Shown piece after piece: positions 14,111-19,946 of a stretch of DNA of 64,000 nt. Made by a program: the position numbers and the translations under genes. This DNA is from Pelagibacteraceae bacterium AG-422-B15. Lineage in GTDB: Bacteria; Pseudomonadota; Alphaproteobacteria; Pelagibacterales; AG-422-B15. The stretch's first letter is position 1, and every line of letters starts with the position of its first letter. The DNA lies in assembly GCA_905182345.1 (NCBI GenBank), contig CAJJBG010000015.1:36532-100531 (forward strand), in the 5' to 3' direction. Below the pieces are notes generated by a model. That model was not told where the DNA came from and did no database searches. It saw only the letters and a list, made by a program, of their open reading frames with translations.

Positions 14111-15376
14111 TTAGTCAACATTTAGTACTGCATCGATGTTTGTGGTATAGTTTGGAGAACAATTTTCCTTCTTTTGAGCCCATACTCCTGAGAGCTGCTC
14201 TGAAGCAATTTTAATGGTATTCCCTCCATGTCTTAAATTAATCTTGTCTATGGCTACCATTAACTCATCTCTTATTGTAGAATTTTTTGAGAATAGGTCT
14301 ACAGGTTCCTCACCTTCAGGATAAAATCCAGAAAGCAACACACCCGCTTTTTGATAAGCATAGCCTGTCTTAAATATTTTTCTTGTTAAATTTGATGCAA
14401 CTTTGACAACCTCAATTGTATCGTTTGAAGGTTTAGATAAATGAATAGATGTTGTATTAAAATAATATTTATTTTTCTTATCAAATGGATTAGTTCTTAA
14501 AAAAACTGTAACTGAAGATGTTAACAGTTGTTCTTTTCTAATGCGCTCTACAGCTCTACGTGCAAATATTGAAACTGCCTGTTGAATATCAGCTAATTCT
14601 TTTAGACTTTGTCCAAAAGATCTTGAGGTGCAACAACTTTTTCTAGTTGTACGAACTTCCTCTAATGGCAAGCATGACGTCCCTCTTAATTCAAAGACAG
14701 TTTTTAACCCATTAATACTCATTAATTTTCTAATCCTTGAATCTTCAGCATCCTTTAGTTGTTTAATATTATAAATGCCATGCATATTTAATTTTTTTGA
14801 AAGTTGTCTTCCAATACCCCAAACTTCACCTACTTCTATGCAAGATAGAACTGCATCAATATTTTTTAGATTTAATAGAGAGCATACTCCATTAAAAGAC
14901 TCATCATCTTTTGCTAAATGATTTGCAGTCTTTGCTAAAGTTTTTGTATTTGCAATTCCAATACTGACTGGGATGCCTGTATATTGTAGTATCACTTTTC
15001 TTATCTTATGCGCGTACTTTAAGAGATCTCCTGGAATTCCTGTTAATCCTATAAAAGCCTCATCTATAGAATATACTTCTATGTCATTAGTGAACTCAGC
15101 AATAGTATTCATTACTCTTCGAGACATGTCTCCGTACAAGGTATAATTAGATGAAAACACATGAACTTTTTCTCTTCTAATAATGTCTTTGACTTTAAAT
15201 AACGGCACACCCATTTTTATGCCAAGTGCTTTTGCTTCTTTAGATCTAGCAATTATACATCCGTCATTATTTGATAATGCAACAACAGGCTTATTATTTA
15301 ATTTTGGATTAAAAACTCGTTCACATGATACATAGAAAGCATTACAATCAATTAGTGCAAAAACTTCATTTGTCAT
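14111..15376 (-). CDS. umuC: Y-family DNA polymerase V subunit UmuC (start ATG 15376)
   Basis: ALIDCNAFYVSCERVF, LSNNDGC, SSNYTLYGDMSRR, YSIDEAF, C-terminal SPNYTT. Confidence 0.9.
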   Translation of the reverse strand: MTNEVFALIDCNAFYVSCERVFNPKLNNKPVVALSNNDGCIIARSKEAKALGIKMGVPLFKVKDIIRREKVHVFSSNYTLYGDMSRRVMNTIAEFTNDIEVYSIDEAFIGLTGIPGDLLKYAHKIRKVILQYTGIPVSIGIANTKTLAKTANHLAKDDESFNGVCSLLNLKNIDAVLSCIEVGEVWGIGRQLSKKLNMHGIYNIKQLKDAEDSRIRKLMSINGLKTVFELRGTSCLPLEEVRTTRKSCCTSRSFGQSLKELADIQQAVSIFARRAVERIRKEQLLTSSVTVFLRTNPFDKKNKYYFNTTSIHLSKPSNDTIEVVKVASNLTRKIFKTGYAYQKAGVLLSGFYPEGEEPVDLFSKNSTIRDELMVAIDKINLRHGGNTIKIASEQLSGVWAQKKENCSPNYTTNIDAVLNVD

Positions 15377-15377
15377 T

Positions 15378-15770
15378 TTATTTTTTATACAACTTATGAA
15401 TTGAGTGAATGCAGACACCCCAAATAATTAAATCCATTTCCTCTGAAACATGGGCACTAGAATAATCATTGTTTGCTGAAAGTAATGTAACTTCATTTTT
15501 TTTTATTTGTAAAATCTTAATACTGAGCTCACCATCTAGTACTGCAACAACTATTGTTCCATTGGTTGGCTTAATGCTTCGATCCACTATAATTAAGTCA
15601 CCTGGATAAATACCAACACCTGTCATTGATTTACCACGAGCTTTTACAATGAATGTTGCATTGGGATTAAGGATTAGTTTTTTATTTAGATCAATGGATC
15701 CTTCAGTGTAATCTCTTGCTGGAGAAGGGAATCCACATTCAACTCCCTCATTATAAAAGGTTAATTTCAT
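15378..15770 (-). CDS. umuD: UmuD, S24 autopeptidase (start ATG 15770)
   Basis: VECG/FPSPARDY cleavage site, GKSM Ser, LSIK Lys. The track's N-terminal extension runs through the promoter. Confidence 0.9.
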   Translation of the reverse strand: MKLTFYNEGVECGFPSPARDYTEGSIDLNKKLILNPNATFIVKARGKSMTGVGIYPGDLIIVDRSIKPTNGTIVVAVLDGELSIKILQIKKNEVTLLSANNDYSSAHVSEEMDLIIWGVCIHSIHKLYKK

Positions 15771-15787
15771 TATATAAATAAGATATT

Positions 15788-15802
15788 GTTCTTGTTTTGT
15801 TC
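15788..15802. promoter_or_regulatory. Alphaproteobacterial LexA (SOS) box
   Basis: GTTC-TTGTTTT-GTTC is an exact GTTC-N7-GTTC, 17 bp upstream of the umuD ATG. Confidence 0.9.
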
Positions 15803-15846
15803 TATTATTGCACCGCCAAAGAACAGAGTCAACTACATATAAAATA

Positions 15847-16791
15847 TTAAGATAAAAACTGTTTCTTAAAAAAAGAAACGACATCTAAATGGGATTGTCT
15901 TCGTGCATCCCAATTGCCGCCTGCGTGAGCACCTAATATATCTGGTGTTTCTTTAATCAGTCTAATGCGGCCTTCTTTTTCGTCACAATTAATAATATTA
16001 TCATTAATCGTGAAAGTTAGGTGGCCTTTCTTATCAATAATAGCAAACTTTTCCGTAAGTTTTACTGCATAAGGCATAAACTCTATAGGATCTATAGAGT
16101 CGAATGAATGATGTGCATTCGGATAAACAATTAAACTAACATTAGGCTTTGATGGTTTTATATACTCAATAATGTTTTGTACCAAACTTGTCGGAGTATA
16201 GTCATCATCATTACCACATAGTATATGCATTGGTGCATCAGACCACTCATTAATATTTGGTTTAATGTGCGTACCAGGATACAAAGGTAGATGTGCTGAG
16301 AATTTTTCATCTCCAGTAGTTAGGGAATCAATAATAGGTTTCCACGCTGAATAAAAAGCTGCACTACCACCAAGACTCCATCCCATAATACCAATTTTAT
16401 TGGAATCAATATCTGGATGCTGTGACATAAAAGATAATCCACGAAAGGCATCTGTAATCATTGTAGCTAATGTAACAGCTATTTGATCTTCAATAATTGA
16501 CATCAAGCCTCTTGCTTCAAAACTATGAATTCTAAAAACAGCTATGCCTGCCTCTAATAAATTAACCATATGATCATGATGATTTCCTCTTAAGCCTGCA
16601 CTACCATGAATTGCGATTACTAATGGACAAGGTAATTTGGCATTTTCTGGAAATATTAATGTGCCGTATATTTGTTCTTTTGGCTCCAGATCAATATTAT
16701 TTAAGATGTGATAAAATTCGAATGGACTTGATGATTTAAAAAAGAAAACACCTGCTTTTTTTTTATCAAATTTATTATTTATATCATCCAT
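15847..16791 (-). CDS. Dienelactone hydrolase-family alpha/beta hydrolase
   Basis: HGSAG, GWSLGG nucleophile elbow (Ser), DDYTP, YPNAHHSFD. Confidence 0.8.
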   Translation of the reverse strand: MDDINNKFDKKKAGVFFFKSSSPFEFYHILNNIDLEPKEQIYGTLIFPENAKLPCPLVIAIHGSAGLRGNHHDHMVNLLEAGIAVFRIHSFEARGLMSIIEDQIAVTLATMITDAFRGLSFMSQHPDIDSNKIGIMGWSLGGSAAFYSAWKPIIDSLTTGDEKFSAHLPLYPGTHIKPNINEWSDAPMHILCGNDDDYTPTSLVQNIIEYIKPSKPNVSLIVYPNAHHSFDSIDPIEFMPYAVKLTEKFAIIDKKGHLTFTINDNIINCDEKEGRIRLIKETPDILGAHAGGNWDARRQSHLDVVSFFKKQFLS

Positions 16792-16887: not shown

Positions 16888-18168
16888 TTAGTCTCTAATA
16901 GAGTAAGCAACAACACCAACTTCAGATTTATCAGTTCCAATTTTTTCTGCTTCAGCACTAATTCTTAACCCGATAGTTTGCTTAATCAGTAAAAGTATTA
17001 TGTATGAAATTACAAACACAAAGATAGATACAGAAAATAAACCAATAAACTGGGTTCCATATGAAGTACCAGGAGTTGTCCACGGAACAATTAAAGTGCC
17101 CCAAATACCAGCAAATAAATGCACTGGTATAGCTCCAACCACATCATCAATTTTTAATGAGTTTAAAATACCTGTACCCACATACATAATTGCACCACCA
17201 ACAGCGCCAATTAAAATTGCTTCTATTGGGCTTGCGTATAATGGCGCTGCAGTAATTGAAACCAACCCTGCAAGAGCTCCGTTTAACATCATAATGATAT
17301 CTGTCTTGCCACCAATTACACGAGTTATCAAGGCGCCAATTACACAGCCACCACAACCAGCAAGCTGAGTGTTCATAAATATTGTAGACATTGCATTTGC
17401 ATCCTCAAATGACCCAAGAGCTAATTGAGAGCCACCATTAAAGCCATACCAACCCATCCATAAAATAAATGTTCCAAGTGTAACAAGTGGTATTGATGAT
17501 GCAGCAAAAGGTTCCATAGATTGAATCTCACCTTTATTACTAAAACGTCCTAAGCGTGGCCCTAATAAAAGCACCCCTGCTAGAGCTGCCGAGCCGCCAA
17601 CCGCATGTACAAGTGTTGAACCTGCAAAATCATAAAAACCAAGAGTAGCTAACCAACCACCGCCCCACTGCCAACCCATAGTAATAGGATAAATAAATCC
17701 ACCTATTGCTGCTGCAAATAAAAAGAATGGCCAAATTTTAATTCGCTCCGCTACTGCACCAGAAACAATTGATGCTGTCGCACAAACAAATAAAGTTTGG
17801 AAAAACCAAAATGATGCGGGTGCCCAGTTACCTTGTGGTGCAGACGTATCACTCCAGATAGCTAGTGTGCCTATGTAGCCACCTTCTGGGATTCCAAAAC
17901 CAAGATTATAGCCAACTAAATAAAACATTACTGAAACGATTGCAAATTTTCCAATATTCTTGGCAGCAATTGTTGTAACACTTTTTGTTGTTACCAAGCC
18001 TGACTCTAACATGCAAAATCCTGCTGCCATCCACATGACTAAAAAACCACAAACTAAAAATGAAAAAGTGTTAAAAATATATGCCACTTCTGTGTCAATT
18101 TCAGCAAAAGCTGATGGCATAAATAATGACGATAAAATAATTGTTAAAATAATAATGCGATTAATCAT
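16888..18168 (-). CDS. amt: Ammonium transporter, downstream paralog
   Basis: GFCMLESG, SIVSGAVAER, DFAGSTLVH, GWYGFNGGS, DDVVGAIPVH (twin His retained). Confidence 0.95.
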   Translation of the reverse strand: MINRIIILTIILSSLFMPSAFAEIDTEVAYIFNTFSFLVCGFLVMWMAAGFCMLESGLVTTKSVTTIAAKNIGKFAIVSVMFYLVGYNLGFGIPEGGYIGTLAIWSDTSAPQGNWAPASFWFFQTLFVCATASIVSGAVAERIKIWPFFLFAAAIGGFIYPITMGWQWGGGWLATLGFYDFAGSTLVHAVGGSAALAGVLLLGPRLGRFSNKGEIQSMEPFAASSIPLVTLGTFILWMGWYGFNGGSQLALGSFEDANAMSTIFMNTQLAGCGGCVIGALITRVIGGKTDIIMMLNGALAGLVSITAAPLYASPIEAILIGAVGGAIMYVGTGILNSLKIDDVVGAIPVHLFAGIWGTLIVPWTTPGTSYGTQFIGLFSVSIFVFVISYIILLLIKQTIGLRISAEAEKIGTDKSEVGVVAYSIRD

Positions 18169-18337
18169 AGTGAGTCCCTTATTTAATTTCTAGACCTACA
18201 AGAAAATAAAAACTAAGTAGTGACCACTATGAACTGCTGCCAGAATGGCACTAAAGATAAAATTTACTAGTTTTAGGTAGAAGCAGACTCTCATGAAATA
18301 AGGGATGGAGAGTCTACTTCTTAACTAACAGAAAGAG
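18169..18337 (-). promoter_or_regulatory. Structured inter-amt RNA segment (hairpin with anti-SD loop plus multi-stem domain)
   Basis: 14-bp hairpin at 18279-18321 with no U-tract. Its loop carries UCCCUUAUUU, complementary to AAAUAAGGGA at the downstream amt SD (plus 18175-18184). Further short stems at 18194-18278. Confidence 0.5.
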
Positions 18338-19606
18338 TTAGTCTCTTATTGAGTAAGCTATCACGCCTGTCTCAACAATATCTGTACCTTCTTTTTGGGC
18401 TTCATCACTTAGTCGTATTCCAATTGTTGCATTCATAATCATCCAAATTATATATGAAACAACAAACACGGCAGCTACAACTGAAGCTGTGCCAAGCAAC
18501 TGGGTACCAAAGTTTGTATCACTATTTGATAATGGTACAGCCAATGTTCCAAATATACCTGCTAATAAATGTACAGGTATAGCTCCAACTACATCATCAA
18601 TTTTTAACTTTGTTAAAACCTCTGTACCTATGATTACAACCAAACCACCCACAGCACCAATTGCAATTGCTAGTCCTGGTGTTGGCATTAAAGGTTCAGC
18701 AGTAATTGCAACCAAGCCTCCCAAGGCCCCGTTTAACATCATAACTACATCTGTTTTACCTTTCCACAATCTAGTAACAACAGCACAAGCCATTACACCG
18801 GCACAAGCTGCAAGATTAGTGTTTATATAAATTGTACCAATAGCATTGATATCATCAAAAGTGCCCATTGCTAGTTGAGATCCACCATTAAAGCCAAACC
18901 AACCAAACCATAGTATAAAAGTACCAGCAGTTGCTAGTGGAATAGATGAGCTTGCAAATGGAATGAGTTTACCACCGTCAAACCTACCTAATCTTGGTCC
19001 AAGAATAATTGCACCAGCTAAGGCCGCAGCACCGCCAGCAGCATGCACTAAAGTTGAGCCAGCAAAGTCAGAAAATCCTGCTACAGATAACCATCCGCCG
19101 CCCCACTGCCAACCCATAGTAATAGGATAAATAATTCCAGTTAAAATTGCAGTGAATAAAAAGAAGGGCCAGATTTTAATTCTTTCAGCTAAAGTTCCTG
19201 AAACAATTGAGGCTGTTGTTGCACAAAATACCATCTGGAAAAACCAGTCAGAACTAGCTGAATAACCATCCGCTAATGCAGAGCCATCAGTCCAAATTGA
19301 GAAGGAGCCAATATAACCACCTTCTGGAATGCCATATGCAAGATTATAGCCTACAAGCCAGAACATCATTCCAGCAATTGAGTATAAGCCGATATTTTTA
19401 GCAGCAATGGCTGATACACTTTTAGATGTAACAAGTCCTGATTCTAGCATACAGAATCCTAGTGCCATCAACATCACTAAGAATCCAGATACTAGAAATA
19501 GGAAACTATTTAAAATATAAGCTGTTTCTTCTGCAACTTCAGCAAAAGCTGTAGATACAAATAGTGATAAGAAAACTATTGTTAAAGATAAGGTTCGTTT
19601 AAACAT
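18338..19606 (-). CDS. amt: Ammonium transporter, upstream paralog
   Basis: SDWFFQMVF, DFAGSTLVH, WFGWFGFNGGS, ITAEP, AIPVH; signal peptide. Confidence 0.95.
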   Translation of the reverse strand: MFKRTLSLTIVFLSLFVSTAFAEVAEETAYILNSFLFLVSGFLVMLMALGFCMLESGLVTSKSVSAIAAKNIGLYSIAGMMFWLVGYNLAYGIPEGGYIGSFSIWTDGSALADGYSASSDWFFQMVFCATTASIVSGTLAERIKIWPFFLFTAILTGIIYPITMGWQWGGGWLSVAGFSDFAGSTLVHAAGGAAALAGAIILGPRLGRFDGGKLIPFASSSIPLATAGTFILWFGWFGFNGGSQLAMGTFDDINAIGTIYINTNLAACAGVMACAVVTRLWKGKTDVVMMLNGALGGLVAITAEPLMPTPGLAIAIGAVGGLVVIIGTEVLTKLKIDDVVGAIPVHLLAGIFGTLAVPLSNSDTNFGTQLLGTASVVAAVFVVSYIIWMIMNATIGIRLSDEAQKEGTDIVETGVIAYSIRD

Positions 19607-19946
19607 TTTTTTTTCTCCATTGATTAATTTAATAAATTAAATATCACTTAAAAATGTTGCTTCTCAATTATCTTTGTATGCCAAACTGTCAGAAAGAAAT
19701 GCATAAGCAGCTAAAAAATAAGTATAGATTTTATTTACTTGCTCTGAATTCCATCGTTTGGTGAGTAGTTTCATGGCCTGATTTTTGTTATGGCTCCTGC
19801 TTTATATAATTCTATTTCTGGGTGCTGAGGTATTTGAGTTATAAACAACTATTTTATTTTCAGTAACAACTGAATTTTAAATAACGACCATCTAATTCAA
19901 AAATAATTTTCTTAGTATTGTTAACAGTTATAAAAGCTGCCGAGTA

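Follow-up and report, generated by a model that had tools for sequence, protein, structure and literature searches.

A 3' tail with a candidate anti-RBS loop on a Pelagibacteraceae ammonium transporter gene and its relation to the orphan motif PBC-1

How the most abundant bacteria of the ocean control their ammonium transporters without PII has been an open question since Smith 2013 (PMC3870248), which, in the portion of the text available, invokes undefined riboswitches and cites riboswitch-like structures in amt leaders. The same portion reports that, in strain HTCC1062, the SAR11_1310 protein became undetected when amtB was induced, at constant mRNA. The accessible part of Meyer 2009 lists amt intergenic regions without a motif name and contains a table with the hupA/amtB gene order. 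Two motifs of these genes were described in Stav 2019 (PMC6429828, available sections). PBC-1, with 1418 examples in the SAR11 group, either follows TIGR03644 genes or stands between two of them; it presents alternating CUCUCU runs and a terminator named P4, and it was proposed to bind a protein. HRC-2 is located in amt leaders and consists of GUUGAU, a stem and AAAC just before the RBS, with a proposed role in cis. Those sections neither link PBC-1 to HRC-2 nor mention any pairing of PBC-1 with an RBS.

Several systems described elsewhere are comparable in part, each taken here from the available portions of the source. In Salmonella, the narK 3' UTR yields NarS, which represses nirC, depends on Hfq and is released by RNase E (PMC7038943). 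In the icaR mRNA of Staphylococcus aureus, a UCCCC-type motif of the 3' UTR pairs with the SD of the same mRNA and blocks initiation (PMC3868564). NfeR1 of Sinorhizobium meliloti is a free-standing, nitrogen-responsive small RNA with its own promoter, which pairs with the translation initiation region of its target ntrB (PMC10746234). Finally, amt genes elsewhere among the marine Alphaproteobacteria are under the control of the Glutamine-I riboswitch (RF01739).

The DNA analyzed here, hereafter the window, is a stretch of 64,000 nucleotides from a genome (G000) of 1.2 Mb with a GC-content of 32% and a completeness of 98.7%. The nearest named records carrying the same protein are labelled uncultured Pelagibacteraceae or Pelagibacterales. 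We placed the genome in a family (f1) distinct from a second family (f2) whose amt genes cluster with named Pelagibacter records in the tree. The window contains two tandem amt genes (amt1 and amt2; table 1), 64% identical in our search, which are the only two amt matches of the genome; an Amt class of 466 aa found in relatives is absent. In the tree, amt1 falls in the clade of the Pelagibacter amtB-type genes located downstream of hupA, and a hupA-type ORF lies upstream in all six family-f2 loci examined. Neither Hfq nor ProQ was found in this 98.7% complete genome. A single PII gene is present, upstream of glnA; the preliminary description had considered regulation of amt2 plausible where no glnK is linked. 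The amt1/amt2 spacer was described as long: its 169 bp do exceed the median of 19 bp, but 10% of 823 co-directional spacers reach or exceed this length, a comparison resting on crude gene calls that miss genes shorter than 90 aa. Downstream of the amt locus, we also recognized from translations a pair of umuD-like and umuC-like genes (window 14111-15884).

Table 1. Coordinates of the features of the amt locus within the window.
Feature	Position	Strand	Basis
amt1, marine-subtype ammonium transporter, 3' tail donor	18338..19606	-	ORF; TIGR03644 554.7 bits (cut-off 514); tree
amt2, paralogous ammonium transporter	16888..18168	-	ORF; TIGR03644 510.4 bits, 3.6 below cut-off 514
Main 14-bp hairpin with 15-nt loop, homologous to sister-genus amt1 terminators, without U-tract here	18279..18321	-	fold, covariation, model matches
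Anti-RBS sequence in loop	18296..18305	-	complementarity to amt2 SD
Target, amt2 SD region	18175..18184	-	complementarity to loop
Small post-stop hairpin, pyrimidine loop, PBC-1 P3-like	18324..18342	-	fold; model R2 match
Operator-like palindrome before amt2 (previously noted as a UGCCA-UUC-UGGCA hairpin)	18238..18250	.	top-scoring listed intergenic site, genome scan
Operator-like palindrome of amt1 promoter, TGHCA-N3-TGGCA type	19679..19691	.	motif scan
TTGAGA, -35-like hexamer, 11 nt downstream of amt1 operator; putative function	19662..19667	-	motif position
Expected -35 hexamer position of amt2, degenerate in genus	18221..18226	-	leader comparison

The spacer carries a hairpin, reported before and found again at the same place, whose stem is formed by 18308-18321 with 18279-18292 and encloses a loop at 18293-18307; no U-tract follows. 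As had also been reported, ten nucleotides of this loop are the exact complement of the amt2 SD region, 6 nt ahead of the amt2 ATG. The spacer region folds much better than expected (z = -4.27), with none of 200 shuffles being equally good. The 10-mer of the loop occurs five times in the 1.2-Mb genome when both strands are counted, two of these at this locus, and composition-preserving shuffles of the window's loop paired equally well in five of 1000 cases. Loops of this kind are scarce: only one of the 11 long-looped 3' hairpins of this genome carries an anti-SD sequence. A promoter and terminator scan, whose performance was at chance level, predicted no terminator in the spacer.

We then compared the spacers of the genus, from four genomes and five of seven metagenome contigs (the remaining two lacked or duplicated the spacer). 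These nine spacers present an almost constant length (169-173 nt). The main stem was paired in 97.7% of the cells, and four of 11 pairs showed double-sided changes across eight distinct genus-level sequences. The loop-SD pairing, whose conservation in orthologs the preliminary description had left to be checked, was likewise conserved with double-sided changes; the window's own pair differs from the genus by two of these (register positions -3 and +4). These results show that the hairpin and its 10-nt match to the SD are real and under selection.

The preliminary description had proposed that the hairpin belongs to a translational switch in the amt2 leader, with about 100 nt folding back as the scaffold of a pseudoknot. 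The outer and inner middle helices of this scaffold can be drawn but are missing from the minimum-energy fold; they are only 39-50% paired in nine orthologs, with covariation at the level of shuffles, and we found no conserved aptamer-like core. Among the middle helices, only the palindrome reaches 80% paired. In agreement with the earlier view that no known riboswitch is involved, no Rfam family matched the window at its gathering score, the seven sub-threshold matches in the spacer region being far below the cut-off. RF01739 is absent from the window, was not found in the genome, and resembles the window element neither in sequence nor in structure. Among 14 related loci, which include such tails, RF01739 gave five matches in two loci and no other Rfam family matched. 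Those matches correspond to tandem glutamine riboswitches before amt genes (L039:1961-2083 and L044:1986-2106); in L039, an anti-RBS loop also follows amt1, such that two layers of RNA coexist.

Given its distribution, the inner UGCCA-UUC-UGGCA element, previously drawn as an RNA hairpin, is more plausibly an operator in the DNA. In nearly all of the 43 amt leaders of the family, the motif TGHCA-N3-TGGCA precedes the start codon by 65-101 nt. Four of the five best intergenic sites of the genome are associated with amt2, an rpoH-like gene, glnB and amt1, the fifth being unassigned. We rejected an RNA stem formed by the palindrome, since 12 of the 43 leaders have A-G as the central pair (two rows being mis-picked sites). 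A TTG hexamer lies exactly 11 nt past the palindrome in 19 of 26 amt1 rows (of the others, six have two sites, of which the upstream one was scored, and one is truncated) and in all ten amt2 rows from outside the genus. The -35 position begins with TTG in none of seven amt2 leaders of the genus vs all ten other amt2 leaders of the family, which suggests that amt2 may depend partly on read-through in this genus; its palindrome is mostly retained although the hexamer was lost. The sites before glnB-glnA (G000:C22:12236) and between rpoH-like and photolyase-like genes (C8:3365) would outline a small regulon. Our literature search identified no protein for this operator. Our guess is NtrX, the best match of the only protein of the sigma54-activator family found in the genome. 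Related TGACA-N3-TGTC sites (G000:C37:5660, C17:8229 and C7:91703, one of them before a Rieske petA-like gene) may belong to another, perhaps RegA-like, regulator. A different palindrome of the ATGCA-N5-TGCAT type was found upstream of amtB in L127, L166, L104 and other family-f2 leaders, and one related to it precedes tandem amt2 genes.

The position of the hairpin in other genomes bears directly on whether it acts as a leader element of amt2. In the sister genus g4, the order is amt2, terminator, amt1, hairpin with U-tract, such that a hairpin with a C-rich loop closes the locus as a terminator; although amt2 is upstream here, its RBS pairs with these loops in stretches of 13, 12 and 9 bp. 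G009 carries amt1 and amt2 on separate contigs, and the hairpin that terminates its amt1 is of a similar kind and offers a 12-bp pairing with the amt2 RBS. When model R1, for which only genus spacers were used, was run on 60 genomes, its best non-training matches were the amt1 terminators of g4 (E from 3e-5 to 2e-3), and it did not reach the g3 versions; the U-tract is present in both g3 and g4 homologs. In the tandem loci of family f2, the pyrimidine module is followed by a terminator (pattern found in five of seven loci) and by another palindrome before amt2 (pattern found in seven of seven). A third loop sequence is present in the loci that have tandem glutamine riboswitches, where it matches the amt2 RBS with one mismatch; depending on the lineage, the loop is a C-run, a CU-repeat or CUCC. 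The element is encoded at the 3' UTR position of amt1, and it follows amt1 whatever lies downstream, which speaks against a cis switch confined to the amt2 leader. Judged from these gene orders, the hairpin is part of the amt1 3' tail and not a leader riboswitch. Separately, the Pelagibacter amt genes of L076, L079 and L122, some of them in the amt2 clade, present an amtB-type leader and a plain terminator and are possibly recombinant alleles that lost the tail.

Of the switch proposal, the conserved pairing and the energetic feasibility of its cis form (in this genus, a gain of -12.2 kcal/mol vs a cost of 4.8 to free the SD) were supported; a cis-acting switch or an aptamer restricted to the amt2 leader was not. 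A ligand- or signal-dependent pseudoknot acting in cis would fit the loss of the U-tract and -35 box in this genus, its constant spacer length and one RNA-library contig covering the whole spacer, a contig that does not establish a single transcript. We nevertheless consider it very unlikely: its middle helices are poorly paired without covariation above shuffles, there is neither an aptamer-like core nor an Rfam match, and the homologous loop is also found where a cis effect on amt2 is impossible.

We further compared the tail to the published motifs. A sequence model of 17 P3 modules of family f2 (R2) gave its best match in the window at 18312-18340 (E = 0.0017). The corresponding 7-bp hairpin forms there with an interrupted CUCUCU run, and R2 missed all four other genus members searched. 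This match suggests that the window element is a divergent relative of PBC-1, but the terminator feature failed. Like the examples in the available description of PBC-1, the element lies between TIGR03644 amt genes (amt2 falling slightly under the cut-off) and has hairpins with pyrimidine runs; it differs in having, instead of the terminator P4, a hairpin that lacks a U-tract and carries a 15-nt C-run loop. The published PBC-1 corresponds to the form that this tail takes in Pelagibacter, and part of the motif matches the spacer. The element is accordingly not as novel as first presented, although it still corresponds to no known Rfam riboswitch. The leaders of the 466-aa Amt class, which the tails of family f2 match, agree with the accessible text description of HRC-2; this motif would be the predicted target rather than the element, and its Amt class is absent from this genome. 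The protein-binding role proposed for PBC-1 (PMC6429828, supplementary text as available), with the RBS match being secondary, agrees with pyrimidine runs that are exposed and conserved, and with loops retained in genomes where no paralog was found. However, the C-run, CU-repeat and CUCC loops of the different lineages each follow the RBS of the local paralog, which would not be expected of a single protein site, and we regard this explanation as unlikely.

We quantified the pairing between tails and paralogs with 41 hand-picked donor-target pairs, leaving out near-identical loci (three of about 30 riboswitch-type loci were used). The first 110 nt past the stop were scored against positions -25 to +3 of the target, opening energy included, relative to a background of 390 RBS windows from G000, G007 or G060, which is the donor's own genome only for those three and a relative's otherwise. 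The paralog RBS was in the top 5% of the background for 35 of the 41 pairs, and for 33 when tails were cut at the terminator: 10/12 amt2 and 2/4 distant targets in f1, 2/3 riboswitch-type pairs, and 7/8 amt2 and 12/14 distant targets in f2, the latter being the 466-aa Amt class of the sox-glnT cluster. Of the two pairs lost by cutting, one is a true miss and the other a premature cut; one match that was counted, in L100, has only 5 bp. The reverse direction reached the top 5% in only 2/22 cases. Matched pairs had mean energies of -14.0 and -15.4 kcal/mol vs -10.1 and -7.8 across families; differences to pairs swapped within families were small (permutation values of 0.022 and 0.026), with kin that are not independent. 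Since kin are not independent, these counts reflect about three lineage-level solutions and several changes within families. In this genome, amt2 ranks 13 of 1168 predicted targets of the amt1 tail, and of 1162 tails scored in the reciprocal comparison for the amt2 RBS, the amt1 tail came 5th. When 17 donors were compared, the window's own tail gave the strongest binding to its amt2 RBS. The background tails never surpassed the amt1 tail in G007 (0/374) and G060 (0/389). The raw match to the loop that scored highest in the genome lies in the coding start of an RNase J-like gene and was treated as chance.

The tail could alternatively be an ordinary terminator or stabilizing hairpin, with the complementarity of its pyrimidine-rich loop to a strong, purine-rich SD being a coincidence. 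That amt2 ranks no better than about 1% in this genome points in this direction, as do three genomes (G042, G084 and G085) that keep the GA repeat of the target RBS but have just a plain terminator as amt tail. Among five additional genomes, two gave strong matches, one gave a weak match and two with terminator-only tails gave none, both keeping the GA repeat. G-rich SDs attract any pyrimidine-rich RNA, which counts against specific pairing, and other genes with strong SDs are among the best-scoring background targets, indicating that specificity is not absolute. In addition, the pair of G003 has a mismatch (percentile 0.10-0.11) and the distant target of G088 is weak (0.064). A coincidence is nonetheless highly improbable in our assessment: top-percentile matches recur in three lineages with different sequences, the two directions are asymmetric, such loops are rare, and shuffled loops paired as well in just 0-12 of 1000 cases for each of the 11 loops examined.

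Long-range pairing of the tail with the RBS of its own mRNA would also produce such matches, as icaR-like feedback or stability control, the matches to paralogs then stemming from the shared ancestry of amt leaders. Of 36 donors, 14 had their own RBS among the top 5%, the loops of g2 and of single-amt g3 genomes match the own RBS moderately, and the post-stop segment pairs with it over 9-16 bp in five of 11 family members examined; in the window this last pairing is weak (-7.7 kcal/mol). In contrast, the window's loop does not match the amt1 RBS (rank 795 of 1168), matches to paralogs are stronger and more frequent, and the 466-aa target class is only ~35% identical in protein. We thus judge self-pairing improbable as the main role of the tail. 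Observations in some relatives also count against an antisense role. The loop persists in g3 genomes with a single amt match such as G006 (100% complete), and pattern searches in ten such genomes found no convincing other target. In G005, the amt1 tail has no such loop; the hairpin with the C-rich loop is instead located 3' of amt2 and matches amt2's own RBS, and a local hairpin in the leader is predicted to sequester the amt2 SD (L214:1938-2107).

Taken together, we favor with moderate confidence the reading that the amt1 3' tail, through its anti-RBS loop, exerts an Hfq-independent antisense block on the translation of the paralog; the loop-SD pairing itself probably controls amt2 translation. 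We take amt1 as the nitrogen-induced copy given its clade, its hupA synteny with amtB and the data of Smith 2013. Nitrogen shortage would activate amt1 through the operator, and the stable hairpin would present a single-stranded loop able to nucleate pairing without a chaperone, which would block initiation on the amt2 mRNA. The active species would be the amt1 mRNA or a 3' fragment, generally acting in trans, as is necessary where amt2 lies upstream or is unlinked. In this genus, where the U-tract and the amt2 -35 box were lost, an added action in cis on read-through RNA may occur. RNA-library contigs from four of 21 listed runs were mixed: two mostly lack cover of the spacer, one covers it partially and one (17464-18470) spans it, which is compatible with read-through but is no proof of a single transcript. 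The short post-stop module might add feedback on amt1. In family f2, the main target would be the 466-aa Amt of the sox-glnT cluster, which we infer from gene order to be the SAR11_1310 class; the antisense reading would then explain why HTCC1062 loses this protein, at constant mRNA, upon amtB induction.

The antisense block proposed here shares with the described part of the NarS system a nitrogen-transporter mRNA whose 3' tail represses another transporter through base pairing, and the computations recover a conserved seed complementary to the RBS of another mRNA; it differs by a genome in which no Hfq or ProQ was found, a seed placed in a hairpin loop and a paralog as target. Compared with the pairing reported for icaR, the main loop matches the SD of a paralog, and the own-RBS module is separate and weaker. 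The likeness to NfeR1, as far as that source describes it, is limited to a nitrogen-related alphaproteobacterial RNA pairing with an initiation region. Control by 3'-UTR antisense pairing is already known, and what is new here is a candidate function for a published orphan motif. In the literature, thinly covered for subscription papers and bioRxiv supplements such that a prior mention is possible, we found no proposal that the tails of SAR11 amt genes pair in antisense with the leaders of paralogs.

We more tentatively suggest an Hfq-independent circuit of the SAR11 type, which is plausible but which we would not yet assert: the tails of nitrogen-induced amt mRNAs (PBC-1 and the window's variant) would carry anti-RBS loops co-evolved with the leaders of paralogs, including HRC-2, and would silence these in trans, as a partial stand-in for the PII/GlnK control missing from Pelagibacter. 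If true, this would account for the loss of the SAR11_1310 protein at constant mRNA in HTCC1062, and streamlined genomes without Hfq would still use mRNA-to-mRNA cross-regulation between paralogs. The antisense reading provides PBC-1 with a concrete partner and predicts specific base pairs in culturable strains. Finally, another site of the same genome (G000:C10:13983-14102), between mmsA-like and sdhB-like genes and containing no long ORF, presents an operator-like site followed by a hairpin with a C-run anti-SD loop. A DNA search of 59 family genomes returned no homolog of this hairpin, and the site is a possible free-standing sRNA.
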